64,000 nucleotides of DNA, from assembly GCA_043751595.1 (NCBI GenBank), contig JAYUZR010000042.1, positions 270 to 64,269 of the forward strand, given 5' to 3'. A program made the position numbers and the translations under genes. Shown here one piece after another: positions 108 to 51,073 of the stretch (position 1 is its first letter; every line of letters starts with the position of its first letter). The notes under the pieces were generated by a model. The model did not search any database. It was not told the origin of the DNA and worked only from the letters and a program-made list of their open reading frames with translations. Source of the DNA: Candidatus Berkelbacteria bacterium. Its GTDB lineage: Bacteria > Patescibacteriota > UBA1384 > CAILIB01.

Positions 108-1007
108 TTAACCCCGCTCTTCTGGCTTAGTAAGGGTAACCACCTCCAGGTAGCGAAGAGCTCGGTACTGCAGTGTCCAGTAAATAGCCGTAAAGCTAAA
201 GATAAGTGCTTCGCTAAACCAGGAAAGAATGCTACCGATCCCAGAAGCAATAAGACTAACTCCAGTAGACTGCAAGGGATCTGTAACGATGGTCGATACA
301 AGTGAAATACCCACTACGATAAGTAGCCACTGGAGCAATGCCCAGAAGATAAGTGGCGTCTGGCTACGAAGCATGGCGGTTGCGCGCCGAAGACTGACAA
401 GTACACCAGCCTTCTCGAAGCTAATTTCTCGAACCGCCAATTCTCGTTGCACCGCCAAAACTACCAACACGACTAAAGCCACAGCCGAAAGCAGTACAAA
501 GAAAGGAAATAGTACAGGATACAGGGTAAAAAGGGCTTCAAAACTTCCTGGGATAGTCGCTGTACCGGCTACAGCAAAGATTAGTAAGCCTCCCAAAAAG
601 AGCACAACCACCAGAGTAAGAAGTGAAAAAAGCCAGCTTACTAATTGAAGCTGAGTAAGCGGTAGGGCGATAGGAGCTCCAGCCAATTTAAGGGCGGCTA
701 GAGGCATTAGTCTGGCCTGCTCTTGCTCAAATACCAGGGTAGAGCGCACCAAGGCACCAAGAGCTGCGTTAGCAATGAGCAACAAGGCTAATCCAAGGCA
801 AAGCAAACCCACTAAGCCCACAGGACTAGCTGCATACTGCTTTAGTATCTCCCTGCTGCCGGATGTAGCTGTCACCAAGCCAGGTAGTGTGGCAACCAAA
901 CCAAGCCAAAGCAATTGCGGGTGCAACTGGATATACGCACCCGAGCGTTGCGCAATAGCGGCATGATTAATTCCTATCATCTTCTTAGTTAAAAAAACAG
1001 TTAACAA
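108..1007 (-). CDS. polytopic membrane protein of unknown function; last gene of a minus-strand operon
   Basis: 299-aa ORF that is hydrophobic throughout with multiple predicted TM helices. It overlaps the upstream ZIP gene by about 20 nt. I recognise no catalytic motif. Confidence 0.5.
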   Translation of the reverse strand: MLTVFLTKKMIGINHAAIAQRSGAYIQLHPQLLWLGLVATLPGLVTATSGSREILKQYAASPVGLVGLLCLGLALLLIANAALGALVRSTLVFEQEQARLMPLAALKLAGAPIALPLTQLQLVSWLFSLLTLVVVLFLGGLLIFAVAGTATIPGSFEALFTLYPVLFPFFVLLSAVALVVLVVLAVQRELAVREISFEKAGVLVSLRRATAMLRSQTPLIFWALLQWLLIVVGISLVSTIVTDPLQSTGVSLIASGIGSILSWFSEALIFSFTAIYWTLQYRALRYLEVVTLTKPEERG

Positions 1008-1761
1008 CTACAGGCCAGAAATACATAAGGAAGGCCGAAACTCCCGCGATGCTATAGGTAAGTTTGACCCCAACCTGCTCCTTAGCCTCTGGTAGTAATT
1101 CCTTTGCTACAAGCCAGAACATGGCTCCAGCTGCAAAACCGAGGCCTGCGGGCAAGAATACCACAAAGGTGCTTACAAAAAGAAAGGCTGGAACAGCCAT
1201 GATCGGCTGTGGGAGGCTACTGAAAATACTCCAACCCGCTGCCTTCCAAACAGAGGTGCCCTTTGGCACCATTACCGCACTAATTGCCAGGCCTTCTGGG
1301 ATATTATGAATAGCCAAAGCGAGGGCGATGAGAATACCAAAGGCTTGCGTCTCGCCAAAAGCAAAGCCGATACTGACTCCTTCAGCAAAGGAGTGGACCG
1401 TCATGATGGCGATGATCATGATGATCTTGCGCAGGTTTGCCCCAGCAAGCTCGGCAGGATCGGCATCGATATTTCTTTTCTCGAGAATGTAGTGAGCCGC
1501 AAAAATAAAGAGACCCCCAACTACAAGCCCTGCCACTACCCGCATCAGGCTGATCCGGGCGCCATCAACAATAAGTTGCACCGAAGCGCCAACCATAAGG
1601 CCTGAGGCCAGTGCATTGCAGACACCAACAGCTTTGGGCGTAACCTTTTTGAGAAAGAAAAAAGGCAATGCACCAAGGCCAGTTGCCACTGCCGTGAGCA
1701 GTGCGTACCAAAAAACAAGAATAACGGAGTGAGACATACTACTGAAAAGTAGCATACTCAA
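985..1761 (-). CDS. ZIP-family divalent metal (Zn/Fe) transporter
   Basis: 258 aa with 8 TM segments. His-rich ZIP signatures HSFAEGVSIG and HNIPEGLAIS are present, and size and topology fit ZupT-like proteins. Confidence 0.8.
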   Translation of the reverse strand: MSMLLFSSMSHSVILVFWYALLTAVATGLGALPFFFLKKVTPKAVGVCNALASGLMVGASVQLIVDGARISLMRVVAGLVVGGLFIFAAHYILEKRNIDADPAELAGANLRKIIMIIAIMTVHSFAEGVSIGFAFGETQAFGILIALALAIHNIPEGLAISAVMVPKGTSVWKAAGWSIFSSLPQPIMAVPAFLFVSTFVVFLPAGLGFAAGAMFWLVAKELLPEAKEQVGVKLTYSIAGVSAFLMYFWPVVVNCFFN

Positions 1762-1782
1762 CCCGAAAAAGATACGAACAAA

Positions 1783-3228
1783 CTACTGCGCAAGACCAAT
1801 CTCTCCGCCATTCTTAGCGCTAGGATTAAGTGGAATAACCACCGAGATAAGCGTACCGCTATTAATCTGGGAGCTTACCGTTACTTTACCGCCAAGCTCT
1901 TTCTCGACGATAGTATTAACAATAGTGAGCCCCAGACCCGTACCGCCGCGGTGTTTTTTGGTTGTGTAGGAGAACCTACTGACCGCGCGCAGTACTTCTG
2001 ATGTCATACCGCAGCCATAATCTTGGACGGTAAGGTAGAGCCATTTGCCGTCTCTGCGCAGCACGACATGAATGTACCGCTCGCGAATACTACGCTTGGA
2101 GCCCTGGTAGGAATCGATGGCGTTAGTGAGTAAGTTGGAAATAACCTGAGTAAAGCGCTCCTTGGGGCCAAAGAATGCGTCTGCATCTCCTTCTAGTCGT
2201 ACTTCAACCCCCATTTCGTGGCAGCGGTATTCGAGCAGCTGAATAACCCTCTCTATTTCTTCGTAGGGACTAAACTCGCTTGAGTGGTATTCGTTTTTTA
2301 CCTGGCTGCGTAGAGAGGTGACCATACCCTCGAGACTTTTGATGGCTTCCTGCGCTTTCTCGAGGCGGATAACATCCCCACCCTCGGCGAGCTGGAGGTT
2401 AAGTGAAGCGGCATTAATGGGATTAAGAATATCGTGCATTAGTGCAGAAGTTCTCCTGCCCCACTCGAGGAGTTGAGCCATTTCTAGATCGTAGGTCATT
2501 TCGATTCTACCAAGCTGAATGGTTTGCTCCCCCACCGTCTCTACCAATTGATCGCGCTCCACCCGGAGGAGCCGCTCTGATTTTTCAAGCCTTTTTAGTG
2601 CATGCTCCAGCTGCGCAGTGGTAAGCCAGGCCGAAAAAGCGATAAGAAGAAGTTGGAAGCCCATCGAGATAGCATCACCCACCATAGGCGCCTGGGTCTG
2701 CCAAGTGAGATCGGGATGTATACTGCCCGTATTGTGCAGTGCCTGGGTTATGCCGATCATTACCACCGCGATAGTGCCGACAAGCATACTCGTTTTAGCC
2801 TTAAATAAGCTACTGGCCATTAGCATTGCGTAGCAGAATAGAACTAAGGCGCTTGGCACAAAGATACCCCAGCGCAGAATAAGACAGAGACTAATAATAA
2901 AAAGGCTGGTAACCGCCACAATTGCTGGGACGATATGATTACCTCTTAGACTAGTAATGAAGAGTGCGACAATCCCTAAACAGACAAATACGCAAATAGC
3001 GAGAATGACGAGGTGCCAAGAACCGCCACGCATTGCAAACTCGTACACGGTAAAGAGAAGAGAAAAGAGGGAAATAGCTAAAAAACCAAGCAATAAGACA
3101 TGAAGCACGAACTGTTTTCTGCGTTGATCGGCAGCGGGATGATTTGGCCAAATAAGCTTTGGAAGCGGCCAGTATATGTTTTCGCTATCTCTCGTAAACA
3201 TGGGTAACTGCTCGTGGATGAGGATCAA
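1783..3228 (-). CDS. sensor histidine kinase with an N-terminal multi-TM sensor region
   Basis: The N-terminal half is hydrophobic. The H-box is MHDILNPINAASLNL, and the HATPase_c N and G boxes are LISNLLTNAIDSY and GGTGLGLTIV. It overlaps the response regulator gene upstream. Confidence 0.85.
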   Translation of the reverse strand: MILIHEQLPMFTRDSENIYWPLPKLIWPNHPAADQRRKQFVLHVLLLGFLAISLFSLLFTVYEFAMRGGSWHLVILAICVFVCLGIVALFITSLRGNHIVPAIVAVTSLFIISLCLILRWGIFVPSALVLFCYAMLMASSLFKAKTSMLVGTIAVVMIGITQALHNTGSIHPDLTWQTQAPMVGDAISMGFQLLLIAFSAWLTTAQLEHALKRLEKSERLLRVERDQLVETVGEQTIQLGRIEMTYDLEMAQLLEWGRRTSALMHDILNPINAASLNLQLAEGGDVIRLEKAQEAIKSLEGMVTSLRSQVKNEYHSSEFSPYEEIERVIQLLEYRCHEMGVEVRLEGDADAFFGPKERFTQVISNLLTNAIDSYQGSKRSIRERYIHVVLRRDGKWLYLTVQDYGCGMTSEVLRAVSRFSYTTKKHRGGTGLGLTIVNTIVEKELGGKVTVSSQINSGTLISVVIPLNPSAKNGGEIGLAQ

Positions 3229-3910
3229 AGTAGTAGCCCGCTCCTCTTGCGCTGATAACTAGAGGGCGCCCGAGCTCTTGCTGAAAGCGATCTCGGGCGC
3301 GTTTTACGTGAACCGTTACAGTTTGCGCCTGCGAACCCTGCATGGTTGGTGGAAGTTGGGAAAGAATCTCTTGCCTGGAGACAACTCGATCTACCCGGGC
3401 CAGGTACTGTACGATGGCAAACTCTCGGGGACGGAGGGATACCCATCGACCCCCTACAGAAATAGCACTGCGAAGATCATCGAAAAGGATACCTTCGTGA
3501 TGAAGAAGGGTTGATTGTACGTTTTCTTGGCTATTCTGGTTAGTCCGGCGGACTAAGGCCTGAAGTTGAGCAAGGATAACCTCTTTGCGCAGTGGCTTAG
3601 TGAGGACGGCATCCGCCCCCTGCTGTAGCGCTGTAATTGCAATCTCTTCCGAGTGCTCTGCAGTTATCACCAAAATAGGCTGAGTAACAGTTGCAGCGCG
3701 CAGCCGCTGAATAACTACCGTGCCGGGGATGTCTGGAAGACCGAGATCGAGGATGACGGCGGAAACAGTTTTTCTTTTACAAAAGAGTAGGGCGCCGTTT
3801 CCGGTACCCACATGTGCAACTTGATACAGCCCTTTTAGGAGGTGGGTAAGCGCCTCAGCCGTTGCGGGATGATCTTCTACGATAAGAATAAGCGGTTCTT
3901 GAGCCTCCAT
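3185..3910 (-). CDS. OmpR-family response regulator
   Basis: N-terminal receiver domain (LILIVEDH, ILDLGLPD) and C-terminal winged-helix Trans_reg_C (LRPREFAIVQYL). It overlaps the HK gene in the usual cognate-pair arrangement. Confidence 0.85.
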   Translation of the reverse strand: MEAQEPLILIVEDHPATAEALTHLLKGLYQVAHVGTGNGALLFCKRKTVSAVILDLGLPDIPGTVVIQRLRAATVTQPILVITAEHSEEIAITALQQGADAVLTKPLRKEVILAQLQALVRRTNQNSQENVQSTLLHHEGILFDDLRSAISVGGRWVSLRPREFAIVQYLARVDRVVSRQEILSQLPPTMQGSQAQTVTVHVKRARDRFQQELGRPLVISARGAGYYFDPHPRAVTHVYER

Positions 3911-3968
3911 GCGCTAGATACTAGCGCAAGTTTCGTGACCTCGGGGTGACATGCTCTCCAATACCCAA

Positions 3969-4421
3969 TTATACCCCTAGCTTTTGATTCATTTCTGTAA
4001 CCCCGCCCCCTACCCAAACCTGTTTTGCTGACCCATCGGGGGCGAGCTCAACAAAGGTATGCTGATAATTAATGGCAAACTTTTTGCGCAGTTCTTTGTT
4101 TGAGTCAAAATCAACCTTTACGATAACCACATCGCTCGGCAACTTGCTCAGAGCTTCAGTTTTAAACTCGGCATCAGCCGAACGACAGGTGGGACACCAA
4201 GGTGCGGCAAAAAAGTACACTATTCTCTTGTTTTCTGGATTAGATGGAGCGTAATCCCGAAAAAGCTGGTACTGAGCACCAGTAATAACAGGCTGAACCG
4301 CAGCAGCCGTAGCCTTGGTTTGGACGGGAATGTTGGAGGCATTCATCATAAAAAAACCAAGGACAATACCAGCGACTACCACCACTCCAAACCCAGTTAC
4401 TGCGCGAATATGAGAAGCCAT
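3969..4421 (-). CDS. membrane-anchored thioredoxin-like protein (TlpA/ResA-like)
   Basis: N-terminal TM anchor, then a thioredoxin fold with the CxxC motif WCPTCR. It overlaps the upstream gene. Confidence 0.6.
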   Translation of the reverse strand: MASHIRAVTGFGVVVVAGIVLGFFMMNASNIPVQTKATAAAVQPVITGAQYQLFRDYAPSNPENKRIVYFFAAPWCPTCRSADAEFKTEALSKLPSDVVIVKVDFDSNKELRKKFAINYQHTFVELAPDGSAKQVWVGGGVTEMNQKLGV

Positions 4422-4906
4422 GATCGAATATACGATACTAGACCAAGTCTAATTGAACCAGTAGGAAGCGAAATAGTAAGGATTGGGTGATCTGGTAGAA
4501 AAGTACAGGGTAACGTTATTTCAAGGCGGCGCTCGGTTAACTGACGGGTGGAGATGCGCTCTTTTCCTCCGGAGTAATCGATGGCAACCGTATTAACCAC
4601 TACTCCATTAGGCAGAGCTAGAGTAATAGGGAGAGGCTCACAAACTGCTCCTACCCCAAATGACTGAACTCTGAGCGATGCCTGTACACGCTTATTTCGG
4701 AGAAGTAATTGGCCAATTTCTTTATTGTACTGAGTTATTACTCCCACTTCTGAAATGGTGACCAGGTTACGAGTATCAAGCTCGGGTCGCTGTTGGTAGT
4801 AGTTGAGCCATACCCCCTTGGCGATGAGCGCCAGGAGACCTGCAAGTAGAGTAGCCACCAAAAGAAGCCTAACCTTCCGATTTCTCAGGAAATGAGGGAT
4901 GCGCAT
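4397..4906 (-). CDS. membrane-anchored protein of unknown function; first gene of the operon
   Basis: 169 aa with one N-terminal TM helix (LLLVATLLAGLLALIA) and an extracytoplasmic domain. No recognisable motif. Confidence 0.4.
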   Translation of the reverse strand: MRIPHFLRNRKVRLLLVATLLAGLLALIAKGVWLNYYQQRPELDTRNLVTISEVGVITQYNKEIGQLLLRNKRVQASLRVQSFGVGAVCEPLPITLALPNGVVVNTVAIDYSGGKERISTRQLTERRLEITLPCTFLPDHPILTISLPTGSIRLGLVSYIRSWLLIFAQ

Positions 4907-4959
4907 AGCTCTATGCTACCATATTGCTCATTTGATGAGCTTCTGGTTCTAGTGGGTAT

Positions 4960-5916
4960 ATGCAATCACGCAATCAAACTCGTCACACTCCCCGCCCGGC
5001 CCAGATTGAAAAAATGGTCCGAAGGACTGCTTTTCGGTTAAAGCAGGATGATGTTTCGTGGCAAGAAGCCTTTACCCAGGCGGTAATGGCCGCCAATAGC
5101 TCGAAGCCAGCAGCAATTTGGTGCAAGCCAAAAGAAGCGGCTAGCAACCTACCAGAAAACCTACCTGCCCTGGCATGGCAACCAGATTGGGTTGAAGTGT
5201 TTAAAGATACCGACACAAGTATCGGTAAGCACACGCTACATGAGTCAGGGCACCTCTATTCACTCGATTTCTCCTCAGTTGTTTCGGCCTCCTCTCTCCT
5301 CACCATCACCGAACCAATCGAGACCATTCTTGATATGTGCGCAGCACCTGGTGGCAAAGCGCTCTTTGCCTGGAGAGCTTTTAACCCCGAGCTCCTCGTC
5401 TGCAACGAGGTAATCTACAAGCGGCACGCTATGTTGCATGCCAACCTTAATCGTACAGGTGCCTCAGAAGTAGCAGAAGTAGTGCAGCGCGATCCGGATT
5501 CACTCAGCAAGCAGTACCCAAACTTCGCCGATATTGTGTTGGTCGATGCACCTTGTAGCGGACAATCTCTACTCGCCAAGGGCGATGAAGCCGAAGGTGC
5601 TTTTTTGGACCACGTAGTTGCTGCTAATATGACCCGACAGCGCCGCATCTTAGCTAACGCCGTTAAGATTGTGCGGCCCGGTGGCTATCTTTGTTACATG
5701 ACCTGCACCTATGCTCGCGAAGAAAATGAGAAAAACGTAGAATGGCTTCTACGTCGCTTCCCCGAGTTTACCGCTCAAATTGTTCCTCATCTAGAAGAAG
5801 CAGGCATTAGGAGCTGGCTTCTTGATGAACCCTGCTACCGCCACTCTCCTCAAGATGGCCTTGGTGCCGGTGGGTTTGTTGCGCTCCTCCGCCGCTCTAC
5901 AGAACCAGTAGATTAA
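4960..5916 (+). CDS. RsmB/NOP-family SAM-dependent RNA cytosine-C5 methyltransferase
   Basis: AdoMet motif CAAPGGKA, catalytic-type DAPCSG (motif IV, PC) and TC dipeptide region MTCTYAREENE (motif VI) of m5C RNA MTases. Confidence 0.75.
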   Translation: MQSRNQTRHTPRPAQIEKMVRRTAFRLKQDDVSWQEAFTQAVMAANSSKPAAIWCKPKEAASNLPENLPALAWQPDWVEVFKDTDTSIGKHTLHESGHLYSLDFSSVVSASSLLTITEPIETILDMCAAPGGKALFAWRAFNPELLVCNEVIYKRHAMLHANLNRTGASEVAEVVQRDPDSLSKQYPNFADIVLVDAPCSGQSLLAKGDEAEGAFLDHVVAANMTRQRRILANAVKIVRPGGYLCYMTCTYAREENEKNVEWLLRRFPEFTAQIVPHLEEAGIRSWLLDEPCYRHSPQDGLGAGGFVALLRRSTEPVD

Positions 5917-7177: not shown

Positions 7178-8848
7178 ATGAATCTTTTCGCCGAACTTAG
7201 CCTCGTTCTAATTGTTGCCACTATTGTGGCTGCCGCGATGCAGCGAATTAAGCAGCCGCTTATTATTGGCCATATTGTTACCGGTATCTTGGTTGGCCCC
7301 TACGTTTTTAATGTTATTCAATCAGCTGAGATCTTTGAACTACTCTCCAAGCTTGGCGTTACGCTCCTCCTTTTTATTATTGGTCTCAGCCTTAACCCTA
7401 AGGTTCTTAAAGAAGTAGGAACCCCGGCCCTTGTTATCGGAATTGGCCAAATTGCGGGAACTGCCCTAGTTGGTGGCACCATCGCCTTTGCCTTTGGTCT
7501 TTCACTGATGAGCTCGCTCTTTATTGGCGTCGCCCTTTCACTTAGTAGTACCATCGTTATTCTCAAGCTGTTAAGTGATATGCGCCAACTAGGAACACTA
7601 CACGGCAAAATCACCATTGGCATCTTGGTTCTTCAAGATATTGTCGCCAGTGCAGCCTTAGTAGTGGTAGGTAGTGCACACGGTGGCCACAGCCAGGCAC
7701 AACTTGGCCTTCTGGGAAGTAAAGTATTCTTATTTGTTGGTGGTATTTGGCTGCTTGTTCGTTTTATTGTCCCAAAAATTGCACCGCTTATTGCCGCTTC
7801 CCAAGAGTTTCTCTTCCTCTTTACCCTGGGCTGGGGCTTGGGCATTGCCTCCCTTGCTAGTATGGTTGGCTTTTCTCCAGAGATTGGTGCCCTGGTTGCC
7901 GGTGTTGCCTTAGCCAGCACTCCGTACGCCCACGAGATTGCTGCCAAGATGCGTCCGCTTCGCGATTTCTTTGTGGTGGTATTCTTTATCATTCTAGGAG
8001 CACAGTTTGGTATTAATGATGTCCACACAGTTATCGTACCGGCCCTCTTCCTCTCCCTCTTTGTTCTTCTTGGAAAACCCTTTATTACTACCCTCCTCGC
8101 TGCCCTTTCTCATTATCGATCAGAAACCAGTATTAAAACTGGGTTGATGCTCGGGCAGGTAAGCGAGTTCTCCTTTATCTTGGTGCTACTCGGCGCCCAG
8201 CTTGGAATGATTCCCCAACCAATTGTGAGCCTGGTTACGCTTACCGCCATTATCACCCTTACTTTCTCTAGTTACTTTATTCTCTACAGCGATAAGCTTT
8301 ACCGCTTTTTACGGCCCTACATTACCAAGGCGGAACATAACGATCACTCTCAGCCAAAGCTTAAGCACGAGTACGATATCTTTGTTTTTGGGTATAAAAA
8401 GGCAGGCAGGCATTTTGTTGATGAACTGATTCGGCTTGAGCAGCGCTTCTTGGTAATCGATTTTGATCCTCAAATGATTAAAAACCTTGAGGACCGAGGC
8501 ATTCCCTGCCTCTTTGGCGATGCCAGCAATCCCGAGCTCCTAGGCGACCTCGATCTTGCTACCGCCCAGGTAGTGGTCTGCAATATCGCCCATTATGTGA
8601 CCAGCAATCTTCTACTGAGCATCGTGCACACGGCTAACCCCAATACCGTAGTAGTCCTTACCTGTGATGATCCCCGCGAAGCGGCCGAACTCTACCACGC
8701 AGGCGCTACATACGTTGTAATGCCACATTACCTTGGTGGTACCAAGATAAGCTCAATCATTGATAGGTATGGTTTGTCCCGCGAGGTATTTGAGCGCGAG
8801 CAGCAAAAACACCTATCGTATCTGTTTAAAATTCACGGGATTTCCTAG
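7178..8848 (+). CDS. CPA2-family monovalent cation:proton antiporter (Kef-type) with C-terminal TrkA-N/RCK domain
   Basis: About 380 aa of Na_H exchanger TM region, then a Rossmann RCK motif IFVFGYKKAGRHFVDELI and a TrkA-N-like fold. Confidence 0.85.
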   Translation: MNLFAELSLVLIVATIVAAAMQRIKQPLIIGHIVTGILVGPYVFNVIQSAEIFELLSKLGVTLLLFIIGLSLNPKVLKEVGTPALVIGIGQIAGTALVGGTIAFAFGLSLMSSLFIGVALSLSSTIVILKLLSDMRQLGTLHGKITIGILVLQDIVASAALVVVGSAHGGHSQAQLGLLGSKVFLFVGGIWLLVRFIVPKIAPLIAASQEFLFLFTLGWGLGIASLASMVGFSPEIGALVAGVALASTPYAHEIAAKMRPLRDFFVVVFFIILGAQFGINDVHTVIVPALFLSLFVLLGKPFITTLLAALSHYRSETSIKTGLMLGQVSEFSFILVLLGAQLGMIPQPIVSLVTLTAIITLTFSSYFILYSDKLYRFLRPYITKAEHNDHSQPKLKHEYDIFVFGYKKAGRHFVDELIRLEQRFLVIDFDPQMIKNLEDRGIPCLFGDASNPELLGDLDLATAQVVVCNIAHYVTSNLLLSIVHTANPNTVVVLTCDDPREAAELYHAGATYVVMPHYLGGTKISSIIDRYGLSREVFEREQQKHLSYLFKIHGIS

Positions 8849-9427
8849 CTAGTCTACCGCTAGTCCAGCCAAGCGACGATCGGGAACCACCCACAAAATA
8901 GCGGTACAACCCAAGATAACAAGTGAGGAAATTGGTGAGAAAAAAGCGCAAAGAAAAGCTAGCGTATAGAGGACCTGAGAAATGAGTCCCTTTTTATCCC
9001 GCCCAATGCGCTGAGCAATCTCACTTGTTGGGTTTGCCCGGATAATACTACGACTCAAGAGGTAGTACGCATTTCCGCTCATAAAGCCAACAACCGCATA
9101 TAAGAATACGGGCCAACGCTCGGTGTAATGATGATGCTCGCCCACCCAAGCCGTAGCAATAGGAACCAAGGAAAGCCAAAACAGTACGTGCATATTTGCC
9201 CACATAATCTTGCTACTAATCTTCTTAGTCGCCCTAAGAAGGTGGTGGTGATTATTCCAGTAGATTGCGAGCACGATAAAGCTGAAAACGTAGGCGACGA
9301 GCTTAGGGACAACCTCCCGCCAATCAGCAATATCGGCACTAGCCGGAGCTTTAATCTCCAGAATCATGATCGTGATAATGATGGCGATCACGGCGTCGCT
9401 AAAAGCCTCGAGGCGGGATGTATTCAT
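8849..9427 (-). CDS. TMEM175-family (DUF1211) potassium channel
   Basis: 192 aa with 6 TM segments. The family signature RLEAFSDAVIAIIITIMILE in TM1 corresponds to the RxxxFSD(G/A)V motif of prokaryotic TMEM175 channels. Confidence 0.7.
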   Translation of the reverse strand: MNTSRLEAFSDAVIAIIITIMILEIKAPASADIADWREVVPKLVAYVFSFIVLAIYWNNHHHLLRATKKISSKIMWANMHVLFWLSLVPIATAWVGEHHHYTERWPVFLYAVVGFMSGNAYYLLSRSIIRANPTSEIAQRIGRDKKGLISQVLYTLAFLCAFFSPISSLVILGCTAILWVVPDRRLAGLAVD

Positions 9428-9469
9428 GCCCGCACTCTAGCAAAACCAACCTTAGTAGTGAATAACTGC

Positions 9470-10252
9470 CTAGGGACGCAGGGTGCCAGCAAATACCTGC
9501 CAAGCAAGTAGGCTTTTTGCAATAAGAGAAAGCCAAATATAGCTACGCTCACCAAAGACGTAATCAGCAAACTTACCCACTTTCTTATACTGAAGCACCA
9601 TCGTGATTGCGAAGCAGTTAAAGAAGAGGAAAATTGAACCGTAAATATAGTAGACAAAGGTAGGAATCTCGCCCGCACCGTACTGCGCTGATGCCCAAAA
9701 GTAGATCGCCACTACAAGCCACGGAATAATACCCAAGAAGCAGCCGATATTGTAAGCAAGCCAATTAGGCTTTTCAGTGCGATTATAGACCTCCATTACT
9801 AAGCCCATCAGATTCATTCCACTCACCAAGCTAAAGAGCATAATCAAGCTTGCAAGATCGTACAGTCCAACCAGCATGGCGATGGCAACCATCATTATGC
9901 TGGCCGAAATGGTATATTCCCACCAACGAGCCTTATTAATACCTAAGGCAAGATCTTTCTCGTAAGTTGGGCGATACCAGGTGGCAATAGAGAAGTGCGC
10001 AATGGCACTAACGAAAAGAAAGGCAACAATAATCCAGGCAAGTGGCACCTGGGCGATCTCCTTACTTGTTAAAAAGAGTTTTTGTAGGGTTGGGTTAAAA
10101 TCAAGAAAAGCAACAGTGAGTGGAAGCTTAAACCCAGTAGCGAGCGAAAGCATGATAATGCCCTGTAGGGCGTGGAGAGTACCCATTACCAGGTTAAGCT
10201 TGCGTAAACTTGCTGGCTGAATCGTCTGGTCTTTGGTGTGATTGTTTTTCAT
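9470..10252 (-). CDS. heliorhodopsin (7TM retinal protein, inverted topology)
   Basis: 260 aa from the ATG at 10252; the upstream ORF extension is out-of-context sequence. There are seven TM helices. The TM7 motif LSLIAKSLLAWQVFAGTL has a candidate Schiff-base Lys (K246). The TM3 motif WWEYTISAS has the counterion-position Glu (E112). His residues are at HeR-like positions in TM1 (GTLHALQG) and TM2 (AIAHFS). The C-terminal block FLFFNCFAITMVLQYKK..GERSYIWLSLIAKS closely resembles what I remember of heliorhodopsin 48C12. Confidence 0.6.
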   Translation of the reverse strand: MKNNHTKDQTIQPASLRKLNLVMGTLHALQGIIMLSLATGFKLPLTVAFLDFNPTLQKLFLTSKEIAQVPLAWIIVAFLFVSAIAHFSIATWYRPTYEKDLALGINKARWWEYTISASIMMVAIAMLVGLYDLASLIMLFSLVSGMNLMGLVMEVYNRTEKPNWLAYNIGCFLGIIPWLVVAIYFWASAQYGAGEIPTFVYYIYGSIFLFFNCFAITMVLQYKKVGKFADYVFGERSYIWLSLIAKSLLAWQVFAGTLRP

Positions 10253-10300
10253 CACTAGATAATACCCGATCCAGGTACATTGTGTACTTGTTAGAAATAC

Positions 10301-10328
10301 TTGACATATTGTAATAAATTGATAACAT
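10301..10328 (+). promoter_or_regulatory. sigma70-like promoter for a leaderless XRE regulator mRNA
   Basis: TTGACA (10301-10306), a 16-nt spacer, and TAACAT (10323-10328). The ATG at 10335 lies 7 nt after the -10, so the transcript would be leaderless. The same 82-bp region also holds the divergent heliorhodopsin start. Confidence 0.45.
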
Positions 10329-10334
10329 GCGGCC

Positions 10335-10559
10335 ATGTCACTCTTTACTACTAACCTAAAAGACCACCGTGTCCTGGCCGGTCTTTCGCAAGAAGAGCTC
10401 GCCAAAACGGTTGGTGTAGTACGGCAGACCATCGCCTATCTCGAGAAGGGTGATTACATGCCGTCACTAGGGCTTGCCGTAAAGCTAGCGCAACTATTCG
10501 ATGTTTCTATCGACACTTTATTCACCTTTCCGCAGCTCGTTGAGCCGCGCCGTAAATAA
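10335..10559 (+). CDS. XRE-family (Cro/C1-type) HTH transcriptional regulator
   Basis: 74 aa with an HTH (LSQEELAKTVGVVRQTIAYLEKG). It is a paralog of the 51070..51279 gene, and both are immediately followed by a small membrane protein gene. Confidence 0.8.
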   Translation: MSLFTTNLKDHRVLAGLSQEELAKTVGVVRQTIAYLEKGDYMPSLGLAVKLAQLFDVSIDTLFTFPQLVEPRRK

Positions 10560-10564
10560 CACCC

Positions 10565-11536
10565 ATGGCTTCTAACGCCTTTTCTCGGAGTTGGTCTTTG
10601 TTCAAGTCTGGCCTCTCTATTTGCCAGAGTCACCCTAAGCTTATTTGGCTTCAGGCTGCATTTGCTGGGTTTGGTATGATCTACTTTTTACTTGTACAAC
10701 TGCCAATTGCCTTCTTTGGCGGATACATCTCTAAGGTGGTATTAGCTGGAGAATCCAACCTTCCCGCATGGGTCGATCGTCCCTACAATCCTTACATTTT
10801 CTGGCCAATCTTTGCGGTCAGCCTTATTGTTTGGATTTATCTTACCGTAAGTACCGGCATTGCCAGCTACCACGGGGTAAAACAAGCGCTTAATGGCGGG
10901 CATGTTTCCATTAGAGAATGCCTTGCCTTTGCCTGGGAGCGTCGTCGTCAGGCCATGAGCTGGAGCCTTCTAAGCGCAGCCGTTACCGGCCTTCGCTATC
11001 TCTTCCAGGAGCTAATTGAGAAGTTTACCGGCGGGCTTGCCGCCCCTCTTTTTGCCAAGATCCTGGTTTGGCTTGGATTTGCTGCAGCTGATACCGCCTG
11101 GGGTTTTGCAACCGTATTCGTCATTCCCGTTATCGCTGAAGAAGGAGTATACCCTGCCGAAGCGGTAAAGCGCTCTGCCGATACCTTTGGAAAAACCTGG
11201 ATGGGTAAGATGATTACCGATGCAACCGCAGGTACCATCATTGGGCTAGTTGCCCTTCTTGGCTACGTGATTATTATGGCGGGCGGAATGGCACTCGCCC
11301 TTGAGGTATTCAGCGGATCGGCAACAATTATTACTGTCGCCATTACCGGGTTCCTAGTTCTAGGATATACCCTAGCCTGTGTTGGTGTGGCGAACGTTAT
11401 CTCAGCCACCTATAACTCAGTACTTTACCGCTACGCCACTACCGGTGATGTAGTTGGGCCGTTCATGAGTGAGTACATTGTAAACGCCTACAAGCCAGCT
11501 CCTGAAAAGAAGATGTTCGGTGTTCGGATGCCGTAA
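10565..11536 (+). CDS. polytopic membrane protein of unknown function, co-transcribed with the XRE regulator
   Basis: 323 aa with multiple TM helices and a Gly/Ala-rich C-terminal TM bundle. No motif recognised. It starts 6 nt after the XRE stop. Confidence 0.5.
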   Translation: MASNAFSRSWSLFKSGLSICQSHPKLIWLQAAFAGFGMIYFLLVQLPIAFFGGYISKVVLAGESNLPAWVDRPYNPYIFWPIFAVSLIVWIYLTVSTGIASYHGVKQALNGGHVSIRECLAFAWERRRQAMSWSLLSAAVTGLRYLFQELIEKFTGGLAAPLFAKILVWLGFAAADTAWGFATVFVIPVIAEEGVYPAEAVKRSADTFGKTWMGKMITDATAGTIIGLVALLGYVIIMAGGMALALEVFSGSATIITVAITGFLVLGYTLACVGVANVISATYNSVLYRYATTGDVVGPFMSEYIVNAYKPAPEKKMFGVRMP

Positions 11537-11555: not shown

Positions 11556-11593
11556 CAAAAGAGGACCGTCCAAAGACGGTCCTCTTTTCTTTT
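11556..11593. terminator. bidirectional rho-independent terminator
   Basis: The stem gaggaccgtc, loop caaa and stem gacggtcctc are flanked by A-run and T-run, between convergent genes. Confidence 0.7.
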
Positions 11594-13936: not shown

Positions 13937-15421
13937 CTAGAATCCGCCTTCAACAAACTTCTTTGGACCCTTGCGGCGTGGGTTATCAAACCGAATCTTA
14001 GAAGGAGCTGCTGGCTGAGAAGGAGCCTTAGAGAAGGTAAATCCTGGACCTACTTCTGGACCATCGGTGCGGTGATCAGGGTGCTGATCTGGGCGACGAG
14101 GGGCACTACTACCGTAGCCACCACTGGAAGCGCCAAAGCGTCCGCCGCCACGACTGAATCCGCCGGAGCGAGGAGCCGCAGGAGCGTATCCGCCTCCGCC
14201 AAAACTACTACCTCCGCCACCAAAGCGACTTCGACCACCGGTGCGACCACGACCACCTCCGCCACCTGCACGAGCGTACAAAGGACGAGGAAGTGAGATG
14301 TCTAGCGTAGCTAGCTCTTTTCGGATTAGGCGCTCGATAGCTGAAAGCTCGCGAGGTTGCTGAGGAGTAACAAAGCTAATAGCACGACCTTTTTGGCCAG
14401 CACGACCAGTTCGACCAATACGGTGAACGTAATCTTCTGGAGTCTCAGGAAGATCGAAGTTAAGTACGAGGGCAATACCCTGTACATCGATTCCGCGAGA
14501 CGCTACATCGGTAGCCACCAAAATCTGGTGGATACCTTGCTTGAAGCCATCAAGGGCACGACGACGCTCCCAAAGGGTGCGGTCTCCGTGGATTTCTTCG
14601 GCTTGGTAGCCAGCATCGCGAAGCATGCGGGTAAGACGGTTTGCACCGTGCTTAGTACGAGAGAAAACAAGGGTTGAACCTTTTTCAGTACGTAGTACTT
14701 GATCGAGGCGCTCAAACTTATCATCCTGCTCAACTACACATAGCCACTGCTCGATATCTACATTGCTGGTTCCAGCAGATGCAAGGGCAATTTCTTGAGG
14801 ATTAACCAAGAACTCGTTAGCCAGCTGACGAACTTCTCCTGGCATGGTAGCCGAGAAAAGCAGGGTCTGACGGGTTTTAGGAGTCTGACTTACTACCTCA
14901 CGAATTTGAGGAGCAAATCCCATATCTAGCATGCGATCGGCTTCGTCTAGTACGAGAACAGAGACTTTATCGAGAGAAGGAATTAAACGCTGCTGAAGAA
15001 CATCTTTAAGACGACCAGGAGTAGCAACAATAATACGAGGGCGAAGACGCTCGAAATCGCGCATTTGGCGACCAATTGGCACACCACCAATAAGACAAGC
15101 GGTACGAGGAGCGTTGCGGAGATAAATAGTAATCTCGTGCAGGCTTTCTTCGATCTGAATCGCTAGCTCGCGAGTAGGAGCCAAAATAAGGGCCCATTCA
15201 TCGTTATTGAGAAGCTTCTCGAGAATTGGCAAGCCAAAAGCGAAGGTTTTACCGGTACCAGTTTGCGCAATTCCGATAAGATCGGAGCCAGCGCGGGCAA
15301 CAGGAATAGCCTCTGCCTGAATGGTAGTGGCGGTGATGAATCCAGCTTTGTTTAGAGGCTGAAGAAGTTGATCTGGCAAGCCAAGATCAGCAAAAGATAC
15401 TTTTTGGTCTGTAGTGGACAC
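13937..15421 (-). CDS. DEAD-box ATP-dependent RNA helicase with C-terminal RGG/GGR low-complexity tail
   Basis: Motifs AQTGTGKT (I), PTRELA (Ia), DEAD (VLDEADRMLDMGF), SAT and HRIGRTGRAG (VI) are present. The C-terminal roughly 120 aa is Gly/Arg-rich. Confidence 0.9.
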   Translation of the reverse strand: MSTTDQKVSFADLGLPDQLLQPLNKAGFITATTIQAEAIPVARAGSDLIGIAQTGTGKTFAFGLPILEKLLNNDEWALILAPTRELAIQIEESLHEITIYLRNAPRTACLIGGVPIGRQMRDFERLRPRIIVATPGRLKDVLQQRLIPSLDKVSVLVLDEADRMLDMGFAPQIREVVSQTPKTRQTLLFSATMPGEVRQLANEFLVNPQEIALASAGTSNVDIEQWLCVVEQDDKFERLDQVLRTEKGSTLVFSRTKHGANRLTRMLRDAGYQAEEIHGDRTLWERRRALDGFKQGIHQILVATDVASRGIDVQGIALVLNFDLPETPEDYVHRIGRTGRAGQKGRAISFVTPQQPRELSAIERLIRKELATLDISLPRPLYARAGGGGGRGRTGGRSRFGGGGSSFGGGGYAPAAPRSGGFSRGGGRFGASSGGYGSSAPRRPDQHPDHRTDGPEVGPGFTFSKAPSQPAAPSKIRFDNPRRKGPKKFVEGGF

Positions 15422-31166: not shown

Positions 31167-32106
31167 TTCTCATTAAAAATGCGACTCGCTAAGCTGAAGG
31201 TGTAAGCCAATCAGTAACTAGGAGAGTCGCACGTGAATACTGTAGATCAAATTGAAATAGCCTGGAAGCTATACAGCCGAGGTGTTGGAGTGGGTGAAAT
31301 AGCCTTGAGTCTTTCAGTCCACCGAGCAACGGTATACCGCTGGATTGCTGGCATAAAACGAGCTGGATGCCTTCGCTCTTTCTTAAAGAGATATGCTTCA
31401 GCCAAGAAACGAGCCCGAGTAACCCGGATTCATCCTCATGCAGAGATCTTGCTTAAGGAGCAGCGCAGAAAGACCGGATACTGCGGCCAGAAGCTTGTCT
31501 TCTGGCTCAAGAAAAAGCATGGCATTTCTCTTTCGGTGGCCCATGCATATCGCTTACTTAAAAAGCACTTTGTCTTAAGCTCTAAATGGAGGAAGTGGGT
31601 GAAGAGACCAAAGCTCCCGCAAGTTACCCATCCAAACCAAGTGATTCAGATGGACGGTATCGACTTTGGAGGCATCTGGGTGCATACCTTCGTGGACTGC
31701 TATACCAGAAGAGCCCATGCGGTTGCTGTGTTAGACAAGACGGCAGCATCTGCGGCGTACGCCGCAGAACAGGCGGCTGCAGTGTTCGGGAGTATTCTGT
31801 GGCTGCAGACAGATAACGGGTCTGAGTATGGACCGAGCTTCGATATTCTAACGAAGGGCTGGTATCTAAACCGAAGAAGAATCCACCCAGGATGCTCAAA
31901 CGAGAACGGATTCGTTGAATCCTTCAACCGCACCGTTCGAAAAGAATGCTTAGGCTGGGGAAAGTACCGCCCAGAACAACAGACCAAGGTACAAGCAAGG
32001 CTAAACGCCTTCCTTCTTGAATACCACACCGAGAGACCTCATCTCTCACTTAACTTCCTTACCCCGAATGAGTTCATGCTTAAGTGAGTCGCATTTGACA
32101 TGAGAC
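31167..32106 (+). mobile_element. IS481-family insertion sequence (about 940 bp) with 21-bp imperfect terminal inverted repeats
   Basis: The left TIR ttctcattaaaaatgcgactc (31167..31187) matches the reverse complement of the right TIR gagtcgcatttgacatgagac (32086..32106) at 17 of 21 positions, and the terminal 11 bp are identical. It encloses a single DDE transposase ORF. I see no clear target-site duplication. Confidence 0.7.
31233..32087 (+). CDS. IS481-family DDE transposase (rve integrase core)
   Basis: N-terminal HTH, then an rve core with D (QMDGI), D (LQTDNGSEYG) and E (ESFNRTVRKE) residues at typical spacing. The stop codon overlaps the right TIR. Confidence 0.85.
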   Translation: MNTVDQIEIAWKLYSRGVGVGEIALSLSVHRATVYRWIAGIKRAGCLRSFLKRYASAKKRARVTRIHPHAEILLKEQRRKTGYCGQKLVFWLKKKHGISLSVAHAYRLLKKHFVLSSKWRKWVKRPKLPQVTHPNQVIQMDGIDFGGIWVHTFVDCYTRRAHAVAVLDKTAASAAYAAEQAAAVFGSILWLQTDNGSEYGPSFDILTKGWYLNRRRIHPGCSNENGFVESFNRTVRKECLGWGKYRPEQQTKVQARLNAFLLEYHTERPHLSLNFLTPNEFMLK

Positions 32107-36808: not shown

Positions 36809-37432
36809 TTGAGAAAGCTAAGCTTACTCTTCGCGCTCCTGCTCATGGCAAGCAGCGCCTTCGCGCAGCAGATTCGTACTGCTGCGGCGGCAACCTTCAA
36901 TGGTGCCGCTTTCGTAAACGGGATCGACGTCGCTCGCAACGACTCGACCATTATCTCCGGCCCTGGCTCAACCAACTACATCCTTCTGGATACGGTGCTT
37001 ACCAACGGGATCTCTGATCCTGGTACGCGCACCGTTCTCCTTCAGGGTTTAAAGGTTACCTGGGGCGGCGGCGACGTCTTTACTGCAACCAGCATGTTGA
37101 ATGCCGGTGGCAGTTTGTCCGCATCCGGGGTTACCGTATTTGGAGCTCCGCGAACGCTCCCGGTCTCCGGGTTTGATACCTACACGAGCCCTTCGTTTCC
37201 TGGCATGAGTGTGCTCTTCGGAGCCATCTCAGGCCAGTCGTTCGATGGCATCAGCTATGGAGCAATGCTCCAGATCAACGGACCGGCCGGTATTCCCTAC
37301 CGCGCCAACTACGGGTTGGTAGCGGATTCAGGCCAAACCTTTTCGGGCGGGGGCACTGCTCCTGAGCCTGGAACGCTCGCCCTTCTCACCATCGGCATTG
37401 TCGCCGGCATCTGCCGGAGGAACAGAAAATAA
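36809..37432 (+). CDS. PEP-CTERM sorting-domain secreted protein
   Basis: Signal peptide MRKLSLLFALLLMASSAFAQ. The C terminus APEPGTLALLTIGIVAGICRRNRK has the PEP motif, a TM helix and a basic cluster. The body is Gly/Ser/Thr-rich. Confidence 0.7.
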   Translation: MRKLSLLFALLLMASSAFAQQIRTAAAATFNGAAFVNGIDVARNDSTIISGPGSTNYILLDTVLTNGISDPGTRTVLLQGLKVTWGGGDVFTATSMLNAGGSLSASGVTVFGAPRTLPVSGFDTYTSPSFPGMSVLFGAISGQSFDGISYGAMLQINGPAGIPYRANYGLVADSGQTFSGGGTAPEPGTLALLTIGIVAGICRRNRK

Positions 37433-41168: not shown

Positions 41169-41199
41169 GGTACCTGATTTTGAGGTAACAAGCACTTTG

Positions 41200-41604
41200 T
41201 TATTTGAGGAGAAGGGTATTTGAACCAAGGGAAGCCGCTAGCGCATCGAAGGTTACAAACGTAAGGCGATAGTACTGGGCGAGTTTAATAAGATACCAAT
41301 CAGTGAGATGCTTACTGGGGATATCAGGAATACCTGTAGTGCCGAGTGGCTCGAGATTTGATTGTAGAACAAGTTGATACTGGCTTTCTTGCAGTGTACG
41401 AATGAGCTTATATGCATCAGCCACACCACCCAAAAACTCCTTATAAGTAGGTTGCGCCATAATGCGTACTGCACCTAAAAATGTAACCGAAGTAAGTGAC
41501 CAACCAAAAGATGAATGAACTGCATACCAAGATGTAGCCGACCTATGGTGAATGTGAGTTGGTGAAAGGAGTGCCAATAAGACATTTACATCCAGAAGGT
41601 ACAT
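41200..41604 (-). CDS. PIN-domain toxin (VapC-like)
   Basis: N-terminal MYLLDVNVLLAL with the conserved Asp, at 134 aa. It is immediately preceded by a small gene 4 nt upstream, a typical TA layout. Confidence 0.65.
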   Translation of the reverse strand: MYLLDVNVLLALLSPTHIHHRSATSWYAVHSSFGWSLTSVTFLGAVRIMAQPTYKEFLGGVADAYKLIRTLQESQYQLVLQSNLEPLGTTGIPDIPSKHLTDWYLIKLAQYYRLTFVTFDALAASLGSNTLLLK

Positions 41605-50116: not shown

Positions 50117-50162
50117 CCCCGCCAGGAATGAGAAGAGGATAAGAATAATCACGGCGAAGGAA

Positions 50163-50711
50163 TTAGAAGGTAAGGACCTGATCAAAGGTAGGAAGAATTG
50201 CCTGCTTGGTAGAGGTACCGGTGGCATCGATCCGAACAAAGAAGGTCTGGTGAGTAATGCCGTACTTCTTTTTAAGATCAGTTGCAGAATCGTAATCAAC
50301 CTTAATAATAACGGTATTTTTTCCAAGCTTTGCGAGCTCCGCGGGTGTTTCAAGCTTTTTCTGAATCGCCTGACAATCTGGGCACCACGAAGCATCGAAG
50401 AAGTAGACTACGTCTTTACCGTGATCCTTAACCAGTGCCCGAGCCGCAACCTCGGTGGTGAAGGCGATAAACGAAGCGCCAGCATCTTTGGTCATCGCCA
50501 TCTTCTCTTGCTCTTCCTTGGCCATCATCATTTTATCGGAGTCTGCCTTTTCCATTGCCATTTTCTCATCCGCGGTCATCGCCGCTGTGCTGGTGCCCTC
50601 TTTTTCCATCATCATCTTATCGTCATCCTTTTTTACCTGGTTAGCGTAGATTGCTGAACCACCACCGAGAATAACTACTAATACTGCCGCAGGAATAATA
50701 AACTTATGCAT
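50163..50711 (-). CDS. membrane-anchored thioredoxin-like protein with Met-rich low-complexity linker
   Basis: TM anchor and a Met/Lys/Glu/Asp-rich repeat region (MMMEKEG..EKMAMEKADSDKMMMAKEEQEKMAMTKD), then a thioredoxin fold with WCPDCQ. Confidence 0.65.
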   Translation of the reverse strand: MHKFIIPAAVLVVILGGGSAIYANQVKKDDDKMMMEKEGTSTAAMTADEKMAMEKADSDKMMMAKEEQEKMAMTKDAGASFIAFTTEVAARALVKDHGKDVVYFFDASWCPDCQAIQKKLETPAELAKLGKNTVIIKVDYDSATDLKKKYGITHQTFFVRIDATGTSTKQAILPTFDQVLTF

Positions 50712-50719
50712 GGAATGAA

Positions 50720-51073
50720 TTACTGATAACGCTTATACATGAAAGTAATAACCCTCCCCACCGCTGCCAGCCCCAGCACCAGCCAAAACACCATGGCAAC
50801 ATCGGACTTGGGATAGAAAATGGTAGCAGCCAAAAGTCCAGCAAGTACCGTGTAGAGAGCTGCACTATCTGCCTGCAGGCGCAGGAGTTGCTCTCGCTCA
50901 TCTTGTTCTGCCCGGGCAATCATCAGGTAAGCAACCAAAAGCCCTAAGAGTAAGATGGCCGAAATAATCTGAGTAGAAAGCATACCAATAGTAGGCATCA
51001 CAAGGCGATCAAGCGCGTACACCCCCACCCCAAAAGAAAGTAATAACCCTGAGAGCTTAGTAGATGATGTCAC
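50720..51073 (-). CDS. small 3-4 TM membrane protein co-transcribed with the XRE regulator
   Basis: 117 aa, hydrophobic, overlapping the regulator stop by 4 nt. Same pairing as at 10335..11536. Confidence 0.45.
   Translation of the reverse strand: MTSSTKLSGLLLSFGVGVYALDRLVMPTIGMLSTQIISAILLLGLLVAYLMIARAEQDEREQLLRLQADSAALYTVLAGLLAATIFYPKSDVAMVFWLVLGLAAVGRVITFMYKRYQ

Follow-up and report, generated by a model that had tools for sequence, protein, structure and literature searches.

Light and potassium may be linked where a heliorhodopsin (HeR) gene lies beside genes for ion transport, or the neighbours may owe their position to rearrangement of the genome. The question is raised by a locus within a 64-kb stretch of DNA, referred to here as the window. 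An earlier note on this DNA described a HeR gene embedded in a K+ handling locus, and the four open reading frames (ORFs) of that description, encoding the HeR, a TMEM175-type protein, a Kef-like antiporter and an XRE regulator, are all present at the coordinates claimed. The reading preferred here, at a probability of about two in three, is that a canonical light-sensor HeR was recruited in a lineage-specific manner and that its K+ context results from rearrangement.

Identity of the heliorhodopsin

The HeR gene (9470..10252, (-) strand) encodes a protein of 260 aa, which was assessed with Pfam, NCBIfam, PDB sequences, an AF2 model and Foldseek. It matches the Pfam Heliorhodopsin family (PF18761) along the whole model, positions 1-242 of 242, with E=5.8e-89 and 298 bits (cut-off 26.7), and passes the NCBIfam HeR equivalog NF038020 with 303 bits (cut-off 100). 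The best solved relatives in a PDB sequence search are TaHeR of a Thermoplasmatales archaeon (6is6, E=1.3e-66) and 48C12 (6su3, also solved as 6UH3; E=4.5e-49). The AF2 model has a pLDDT of 91.4, with seven TM helices and two strands (42-53 and 58-70) forming a long ß-hairpin in ECL1, as in both solved proteins. Foldseek superposes the model on 6is6 with TM-scores of 0.91/0.94 and an rmsd of 1.8 Å, and on 48C12 with a TM-score of 0.86, against 0.65 at most for type-1 rhodopsins. The identification made in the earlier note is thus upheld by both family thresholds and by the fold.

The residues expected of a HeR, named in the earlier note as a TM7 Lys, a TM3 Glu and His residues in TM1 and TM2, all fall in homologous columns of the alignment to TaHeR and 48C12. 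K246 is aligned to K238 of TaHeR and K241 of 48C12, and S242 to S237, within an SxxxK motif in TM7. E112 in TM3 occupies the counterion column (E108/E107), the exact position at which 7clj, an E108D mutant, differs. H27 is aligned to H23 (TM1) and H86 to H80 (TM2). E112, H86, S242 and K246 are invariant in 40 HeR homologues and H27 is conserved in at least 90%. By the helix boundaries of the model, 14 Lys/Arg residues lie on the N-terminal/ICL side and four on the ECL/C-terminal side, a positive-inside count which predicts an inverted topology with a cytoplasmic N-terminus.

The start at position 10252 is taken to be right because HeR homologues are 253-260 aa long, independent gene calls give 260 aa and a longer ORF of 320 aa, rejected on these grounds, would overlap the XRE gene. 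Judged by its sequence and model, the gene encodes a genuine, full-length, canonical prokaryotic HeR. It differs from the solved proteins in its patescibacterial host and in its identity in the fold alignment, 46% to TaHeR and 38-39% to 48C12, and is known here as a sequence and a model. It adds an ordinary member to a known family, in a gene order specific to its lineage.

Host and supply of retinal

The relatives of the PyrG protein and the homologues of the HeR are both from Patescibacteria, and the nearest sequences to the HeR are uncharacterised HeRs of the candidate phyla radiation (CPR) with at most 67% identity. These sequences point to an uncultivated, poorly sampled member of the Patescibacteria (CPR) as host. 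A diderm host, an idea prompted by a PEP-CTERM match, was dropped because of these same relatives. HeRs were already known in Patescibacteria (PMC9166423), and the reported restriction of HeRs to monoderms is not challenged by this host. The gene order is identical on contigs of four independent samples, so the locus is not an assembly chimera.

Families for carotenoid or retinal synthesis are absent from the annotated genes of the window up to its last ~2 kb, and the absence claimed in the earlier note holds within that range. The dependence of CPR bacteria on external retinal and fast retinal uptake by TaHeR have been published (PMC9296517), so neither the presence of HeRs in Patescibacteria nor their lack of retinal synthesis is new. 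From knowledge of the family, all-trans retinal would be bound at K246, with E112 as the counterion. It would probably be taken from outside the cell, since a retinal pathway is missing from this genome region, as it is from CPR genomes in general. The HeR would then be a slow-cycling, non-pumping light sensor, expected to absorb near 550 nm, whose positively charged cytoplasmic loops transmit the signal.

The TMEM175 and Kef-like neighbours

The gene downstream of the HeR (8849..9427, (-) strand) is predicted to encode a bacterial, single-repeat TMEM175 (DUF1211) channel of 192 aa. It matches Pfam PF06736 with E=1.9e-29 and 102 bits (cut-off 25), and carries the RxxxFSD motif of TM1 as R5-LEA-F9-S10-D11. 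Residues I16, I20 and L23 fall at the hydrophobic pore positions I23, L27 and L30 of CmTMEM175 (5vre; numbering from the printed alignment). The TMEM175-type assignment of the earlier note therefore stands on the Pfam match, the motif and the alignment to CmTMEM175, and K+ selectivity is a prediction. The protein resembles CmTMEM175 (5VRE) and MtTMEM175 (6HD8) in family, motif, pore positions and its single repeat of ~190 aa; it differs in that it is known from sequence and that its pairwise phmmer matches to these solved channels are modest (E=4e-10, weak, for 5vre and 0.0069 for 6hd8). To our knowledge, TMEM175 channels have no link to a photoreceptor.

The next gene (7178..8848, (+) strand) encodes a Kef-like CPA2 monovalent cation:proton antiporter of 556 aa with a C-terminal KTN/RCK domain. 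Na_H_Exchanger is matched at residues 12-362 (E=1.1e-58) and TrkA_N at 401-516 (1.6e-19), and the best solved relative is KefC (8bxg, E=9e-34, aligned over residues 14-522). The membrane domain and C-terminal domain are those of the glutathione-gated K+ efflux proteins KefC and KefB of E. coli. Unlike these, the protein falls well short of the equivalog cut-offs for KefB, KefC and YbaL (171, 158 and 152 bits vs 752, 804 and 700), and its K+ specificity is for this reason not established. It is also under the cut-off of the CPA2 subfamily model TIGR00932 (173 vs 238). No KefF- or KefG-type ancillary gene adjoins it: on one side lies TMEM175 and on the other a 100-aa protein that matches no family. 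The Kef-type K+/H+ antiporter of the earlier note thus keeps its CPA2 and KTN/RCK domains, K+ being a possible substrate, and the sequence supports a Kef-like CPA2 assignment only.

Transcription of the cluster

The HeR and TMEM175 genes are on the same strand, separated by a spacer of 42 nt (9428..9469, (-) strand) in which both a reading of the sequence and a terminator scan found no hairpin or other terminator-like site on the (-) strand. Co-transcription is therefore likely, as predicted from these patterns. A gap of this length is typical of the genome, as the window is 94% coding with a median co-directional gap of 27 nt. The Kef-like gene converges on TMEM175, with its stop at 8848 abutting the stop at 8849 (0-nt gap). 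Being convergent, it cannot share the HeR transcript or operon, and would be an independently transcribed neighbour.

Divergent from the HeR is a gene for an XRE/HTH_3 regulator of 74 aa (10335..10559, (+) strand; HTH_3 E=3.1e-15). It is followed after 5 nt by a gene for a DUF6159 membrane protein (10565..11536, (+) strand; PF19656 E=2.8e-13), and this two-gene module is closed by a strong terminator-like hairpin, found by the terminator scan, with a 14-pair stem and then a T tract (11557..11588, (+) strand). A predicted TG-extended promoter, TTGACA-16-TAACAT (10301..10328, (+) strand; 10 of 12 consensus positions), leaves 6 nt between its end and the XRE ATG. The same geometry is kept in the closest relative of the locus, L165, where TTGACA-17-TACATT is again followed by 6 nt and ATG. 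The XRE mRNA is thus probably leaderless, as the earlier note had proposed for this divergent regulator. On the other strand, TACACA-16-TATTAT (10259..10286, (-) strand) stops 6 nt short of the HeR ATG. This is a pattern match from a consensus scan (9 of 12), in a region where promoter-like sites are no more numerous than in shuffles, and the HeR mRNA is possibly leaderless as well.

The two promoters stand back to back with 14 bp between them. A box of 19 nt, ATGTCAAGTATTTCTAACA (10289..10307, (-) strand), shares positions with the XRE -35 and is separated from the HeR -35 by 2 nt. In L165 it is conserved except at the Y position (18 of 19 identical), and in the window it is unique (chance expectation 0 matches), which makes it a candidate XRE operator. 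No inverted repeats with 6-nt seeds were found in the XRE-HeR intergenic region. A 5+5 repeat seen there by eye, GTACAcaaTGTAC, was set aside as too short to have meaning.

Comparison with the closest relative

In L165, the DUF6159 and XRE genes (XRE identity 53.5%) are followed by ABC_tran, ABC2_membrane and TfoX_N genes and then by TMEM175. The frame shared with the window consists of the XRE-DUF6159 module, the divergent promoter region, one or more genes and TMEM175. The slot after the divergent promoter holds an ABC-2 transporter pair and TfoX in L165, and the HeR in the lineage of the window. As the same frame carries other cargo in L165, the HeR appears to have been recruited to the head of the operon specifically in this lineage. 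This comparison rests on one relative with ~50-70% protein identity, and the alignment of the divergent -10 is weak. The TMEM175 proteins are 73% identical, which is unusually high next to 45-67% for other shared proteins.

L165 also has a HeR (67% identity), located ~15 kb from this frame on the same 47.8-kb contig, with a Kef-like gene (49% identity) at a distance of 3 kb. As the two lie no more than 3 kb apart in both genomes, a weak link between them, restricted to the lineage, could be suspected rather than pure chance.

Recurrence of the gene arrangement

Adjacency was sought from both sides. On the HeR side, the loci of 160 related HeRs, half from GTDB species and half from JGI metagenomes (80 each; 1.79 Mb in all), were screened by phmmer, by an HMM of TMEM175, by a relaxed search at E<=10 and for the motif RxxxF[ST]D; the HeR clades of Actinobacteria, Chloroflexi and Firmicutes were covered through published surveys. 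An operonic TMEM175 was found at 0 of the 160 loci, and none of them has a Kef-like gene. One TMEM175-like ORF (locus L074) was rejected as a recurrence, being distant (E=4e-6), with RIGSLAD in place of RxxxFSD and an opposite-strand gene between it and the HeR; one such ORF per 1.79 Mb is about the chance level for a single-copy gene. From the TMEM175 side, none of the six nearest orthologues (55-73% identity) has a HeR within 5-8 kb. A truncated ORF upstream of one of them (L177) was considered as a HeR C-terminus and ruled out by translation.

The neighbours of HeRs in this clade are very diverse. Downstream, 144 proteins (143 neighbours of related HeRs and the TMEM175 of the window) contain 184 Pfam families, the commonest present in seven; upstream, 138 proteins (137 neighbours and the XRE of the window) contain 179, the commonest present in five. 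As these neighbour tables give the top 25 families, the TMEM175 counts rest on the HMM searches instead. Published surveys of HeR neighbours name no K+ channel group (PMC8612252, PMC11109279). The adjacency noted earlier is therefore peculiar to one lineage, and the proposed link between light and potassium has no comparative support. With a convergent Kef-like gene of unestablished K+ specificity, a typical 42-nt gap and no recurrence, the idea of a HeR embedded in a K+ handling locus for light-modulated ion homeostasis is not borne out, and light-modulated K+ flux is speculation.

Possible roles of the heliorhodopsin

The canonical sensor recruited by one lineage agrees best with this evidence. 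The HeR would probably share an mRNA with TMEM175, and XRE may control it by way of the conserved box. The K+ context would most likely have arisen as a side effect of rearrangement, the genome being very densely packed with genes, rather than as a module dedicated to linking light and potassium.

The strongest rival, though unlikely, is co-regulation without physical coupling. Here, XRE would act as a repressor on both divergent promoters, HeR, TMEM175 and DUF6159 would form one stress regulon (e.g. membrane, oxidative or osmotic), and the HeR would sense light independently of the channel. The back-to-back promoters, with a box so close to both -35 elements that is kept in a relative of ~50% identity, are consistent with such control, as are the same frame in L165, where TMEM175 closes the divergent operon, and the genes for thioredoxin, DsbD and a two-component system close by. 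Yet the box may be just the XRE promoter, XRE-DUF6159 may only autoregulate, and HTH_3 is not recurrent, among the families listed, upstream of the 137 related HeRs.

Characterised HeRs regulate the proteins of their operon neighbours, namely glutamine synthetase (GS; AbHeR), photolyase (TfHeR/TaHeR) and the ABC transporter OmrDE (OcHeR) (PMC11109279), and for this reason a partner relation between neighbours retains some probability. The HeR could accordingly be pictured as a light-dependent regulatory subunit of TMEM175, made from one mRNA and associated with the channel, with photoactivation altering a K+ leak conductance and Kef balancing K+/H+. The same strand, short gap and missing terminator would suit this scheme, as would the unusual conservation of TMEM175, the abundance of Lys/Arg in the ICLs, which interacting HeRs share, and the precedent of a membrane ABC transporter among the neighbours bound or modulated (PMC11109279). 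It is nevertheless improbable, given the absence of recurrence from either side, the typical gap and the separation of both genes by ~15 kb in L165, which keeps them. In the characterised operons, binding has been shown and the partner families recur beside the HeR in many genomes, whereas TMEM175 is beside it only in this lineage and outside the ten published neighbour groups.

Slightly less probable still is the fuller version, in which the HeR was recruited in this CPR lineage as the light-sensing subunit of the TMEM175 K+ channel, on one, possibly leaderless, mRNA under XRE control. If true, a K+ conductance modulated by light through two proteins would exist in nature, and a HeR would for the first time have an ion channel as its partner. 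The only natural route from light to K+ conductance that we know of is the kalium channelrhodopsins (HcKCR1/2), whose function the earlier hypothesis would mimic. These are single type-1 rhodopsin polypeptides which are themselves the channel, unlike a HeR with a separate, unrelated channel protein, and the HeR model fits the fold of HcKCR1 poorly (TM-score 0.62, 14% identity).

Very improbable is a role as an H+ transporter of the kind of viral V2HeR3, in which the HeR would itself move ions and, jointly with the antiporter and the K+ channel, keep ion homeostasis driven by light. Proton transport by viral HeRs is reported (cited in PMC11109279 and PMC12873467), and the HeR adjoins ion-transport genes, but it is closest to the non-transporting prokaryotic TaHeR and 48C12, has the standard E/H/H/S/K set and shows no conserved transport context.

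Implications

The locus is mainly one more case of the published ‘promiscuity’ of heliorhodopsins. Their contexts differ greatly even between close relatives, so that adjacency in a single genome is a poor guide to HeR function. Should the pairing with TMEM175 be functional, an ion channel would join the short list of HeR partners and a new optogenetic design for K+ conductance would be suggested. The conserved, probably leaderless XRE promoter and its box form a small regulatory element that lends itself to testing, in a phylum whose promoters have hardly ever been defined by experiment.

Identity of the heliorhodopsin

The product of 9470-10252(-) is predicted, with near certainty, to be a retinal-binding heliorhodopsin (HeR). 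The Pfam Heliorhodopsin family covers its 260 aa end to end (E=5.8e-89), and it scores 303 bits against the NCBI HeR equivalog cut-off of 100. Its best solved-structure matches are the heliorhodopsins TaHeR (6is6, E=1.3e-66) and 48C12 (E=4.5e-49). Counted along the printed alignments to solved structures, K246 corresponds to K238 in TaHeR and K241 in 48C12, E112 to E108/E107, H27 to H23, H86 to H80 and S242 to S237. The TaHeR E108D entry 7clj departs from 6is6 precisely at the E112 column. Across 40 aligned homologues, E112, H86, S242 and K246 never vary, and conservation of H27 is 90% or higher. The Lys, Glu and His residues proposed in the earlier note align with their 48C12 and TaHeR counterparts, and its observation at the locus was borne out in every detail.

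A confident AlphaFold2 model built from the 40-homologue alignment (pLDDT 91.4, pTM 0.88) contains seven helices and the ECL1 beta-hairpin. Foldseek superposes it on TaHeR with a TM-score of 0.91/0.94 and an rmsd of 1.8 A, against only about 0.6 for type-1 rhodopsins. With the helix boundaries of the model, 14 Lys/Arg residues fall on the N-terminal/ICL side vs 4 on the other, a distribution consistent with the inverted heliorhodopsin topology. The ORF spans 9470-10432(-), with an internal Met at 10252 as the start of the 260-aa form. This is the correct start, because homologues span 253-260 aa, gene calls made independently on four contigs also arrive at 260 aa, and the longer ORF would cross the promoter region and overlap the adjacent XRE gene.

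Host lineage and retinal supply

The search for HeR homologues gave more than 6,000 proteins at E<=1e-10. Their identity is at most 67%; most belong to Saccharibacteria, Dojkabacteria or other Patescibacteria, and a few to Chloroflexota or archaea. None above 63% was found among GTDB species representatives. The CTP synthase of the window has its best named matches in Patescibacteria (up to 71% identity). Judged from these sequences, the host belongs to a CPR lineage that has been sampled poorly. CPR bacteria are considered monoderm, and PEP-CTERM/exosortase sorting is normally tied to diderm bacteria. A C-terminal PEP-CTERM motif in a 207-aa protein at 36809-37432(+) (25.4 bits vs a cut-off of 20.7) is therefore odd in a putative CPR genome. 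The window also contains an rve-type integrase at 31233-32087(+), marking a mobile element or IS remnant mid-window. Two large proteins of putative sensory or enzymatic role are encoded in this small-genome lineage: an 810-aa HisKA_7TM-PAS histidine kinase at 38796-41228(-) and, at 18340-21939(-), a protein of 1199 aa whose sole family hit is a short one to Metallophos.

Families for carotenoid or retinal synthesis are absent from the annotated genes of the window, as had been claimed. Earlier work has recorded HeRs in CPR, chiefly Saccharimonadia (PMC9166423). A missing pathway is the expected state for CPR rhodopsin carriers, which are thought to scavenge retinal. Uptake of retinal by TaHeR is rapid and runs through a lateral opening (PMC9296517).

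Neighbouring genes and transcription

The gene at 8849-9427(-) encodes 192 aa and matches the TMEM175/DUF1211 potassium channel family (E=1.9e-29). The RxxxFSD signature is present, and I16, I20 and L23 align with the pore-lining I23, L27 and L30 of CmTMEM175 (5vre, E=4e-10). HeR and TMEM175 are probably co-transcribed, since they share a strand, are separated by 42 nt and have no terminator-like hairpin between them by terminator scan or sequence inspection. The gap itself says little specific, as gaps are generally short: the coding fraction of the window is 94%, and co-directional gaps have a median of 27 nt, with 26 of 37 no longer than 50 nt.

In the 556-aa product of 7178-8848(+), a CPA2 Na_H_Exchanger domain is joined to a TrkA_N/KTN domain, and KefC (8bxg) aligns along the length of the protein (E=9e-34). 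It misses the equivalog cut-offs for KefB, KefC and YbaL by a wide margin, so it is classed only as a Kef-like CPA2 protein of putative, unproven K+ specificity. The gene converges on TMEM175, with stop codons abutting at 8848/8849, and is thus excluded from the HeR transcript. At this junction (TAG|CTA, 8846-8851) the gap is 0 nt, so each transcript enters the other gene antisense unless it ends within a coding region; the spacing is comparably tight at other convergent pairs in the window.

On the other side of HeR lies the XRE gene (10335-10559(+), 74 aa), an XRE/HTH_3 protein by Pfam. It is followed after 5 nt by a gene for a 323-aa DUF6159 membrane protein (10565-11536(+)) and then by a strong terminator hairpin at 11557-11588 (terminator scan).

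Recurrence of the gene order

The sample of HeR loci comprised 80 species-level GTDB and 80 JGI metagenome loci (1.79 Mb in total; 47-63% identity to the query HeR, flanks up to 10 kb). A phmmer search with the Kef-like protein, relaxed search included, found no homologue in these 160 loci. An HMM of 120 TMEM175 homologues gave a single match, at locus L074. It is a distant ORF (E=4e-6) that reads RIGSLAD where RxxxFSD would stand, and an opposite-strand gene lies between it and HeR. A gene present once per genome of roughly 1 Mb would by chance yield about one match in 1.79 Mb.

Pfam scans covered 144 downstream proteins (143 immediate HeR neighbours and the window TMEM175) and 138 upstream (137 neighbours and the window XRE), recovering 184 and 179 families, respectively. 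The commonest were ABC_tran in 7 proteins downstream and NAD-binding/epimerase in 5 upstream; neither a dominant HeR partner family nor a recurrent XRE gene was seen among these immediate neighbours. Shared XRE control, which would make the locus a small stress regulon, is a plausible reading held at rather low confidence.

For a direct, light-dependent effect of HeR on the TMEM175 channel there is a precedent: HeR partners demonstrated by experiment are its neighbours in the operon (PMC11109279). Published surveys of HeR neighbours list no K+ channel or antiporter (PMC8612252, PMC11109279), and a full-text literature search for heliorhodopsin with TMEM175 matched only a channelrhodopsin paper. 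No HeR lies within 5-8 kb of the six nearest TMEM175 orthologues (73, 65, 63, 61, 58 and 55% identity). The earlier suggestion of a K+-linked light module is without comparative support across the 160 HeR loci and six orthologues, and direct modulation of the channel appears unlikely. That HeR is itself a transporter is very unlikely, as it groups with non-transporting prokaryotic HeRs. The HeR belongs to a known family and sits in an idiosyncratic gene order.

Within 224-5799 of JACCDR011991799.1 (GCA_013565735.1), the TMEM175 orthologue of 58% identity has a carotenoid-type cluster about 1.6 kb away, comprising polyprenyl synthase, SQS_PSY and an Amino_oxidase-type desaturase, along with UbiA and VKOR. 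There is no HeR at that locus, and the proximity is a single case.

Closest relative and the XRE promoter

In the closest relative, the 47.8-kb JGI contig Ga0654462_0000195 (L165), XRE-DUF6159 lies opposite a divergent operon made up of ABC_tran, ABC2_membrane, TfoX_N and finally TMEM175 (73% identity). The L165 HeR (67%) sits some 15 kb from there, with a Kef-like gene (49%) 3 kb upstream of it. As L165 keeps XRE-DUF6159 and TMEM175 with other genes between them, the conserved frame would be XRE-DUF6159, a divergent promoter, a variable slot and TMEM175. In the window this slot holds HeR. HeR may have been recruited, lineage-specifically, into a pre-existing XRE-flanked operon, a reading drawn from one relative in which the divergent -10 elements align weakly. 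Such recruitment appears to fit the published 'promiscuity' of HeR better than an ancestral light-potassium module.

Other features of L165 can be compared with the window. Photolyase-related DPRP and FAD_binding_7 genes (L165 1139-3704) lie about 1-2 kb from XRE-DUF6159, where the window has no counterpart. Positions 48452-51280(-) of the window, a possible redox-stress module whose gene order is conserved in L165, comprise another small XRE gene (69 aa) and then genes for a 117-aa membrane protein, a thioredoxin and a DsbD-AhpC/redoxin fusion. The DEAD-box helicase at 13937-15421(-) has a long Gly/Arg-rich low-complexity C-terminal tail; its L165 orthologue, beside TMEM175, is about 100 residues shorter.

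A consensus scan of the 82-nt XRE-HeR intergenic region gave two promoter-like sites, which are pattern matches whose total is not above that of shuffles. The XRE site, TTGACA-16-TAACAT, is a good sigma-70-like match ending 6 nt ahead of the ATG; the HeR site, TACACA-16-TATTAT, is weaker and also ends 6 nt ahead of its ATG. The L165 XRE gene (53.5% identical) is preceded by TTGACA-17-TACATT, 6 nt and ATG. The common pattern is TTGACA, 16-17 nt, TAxCAT, 6 nt and ATG, with GGCC directly before the ATG. A 19-nt box, ATGTCAAGTATTT(C/T)TAACA, is kept in L165 with one difference and occurs once in the window, where zero matches are expected by chance. Both CPR genomes keep promoter and box (window 10289-10334; L165 5719-5768) at a protein identity of only about 50%. 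Such phylogenetic conservation, including that of the 6-nt geometry, supports the proposal that the divergent XRE gene is leaderless and makes the box a candidate XRE operator. Candidates of this kind for a defined leaderless promoter/operator are rare in Patescibacteria.
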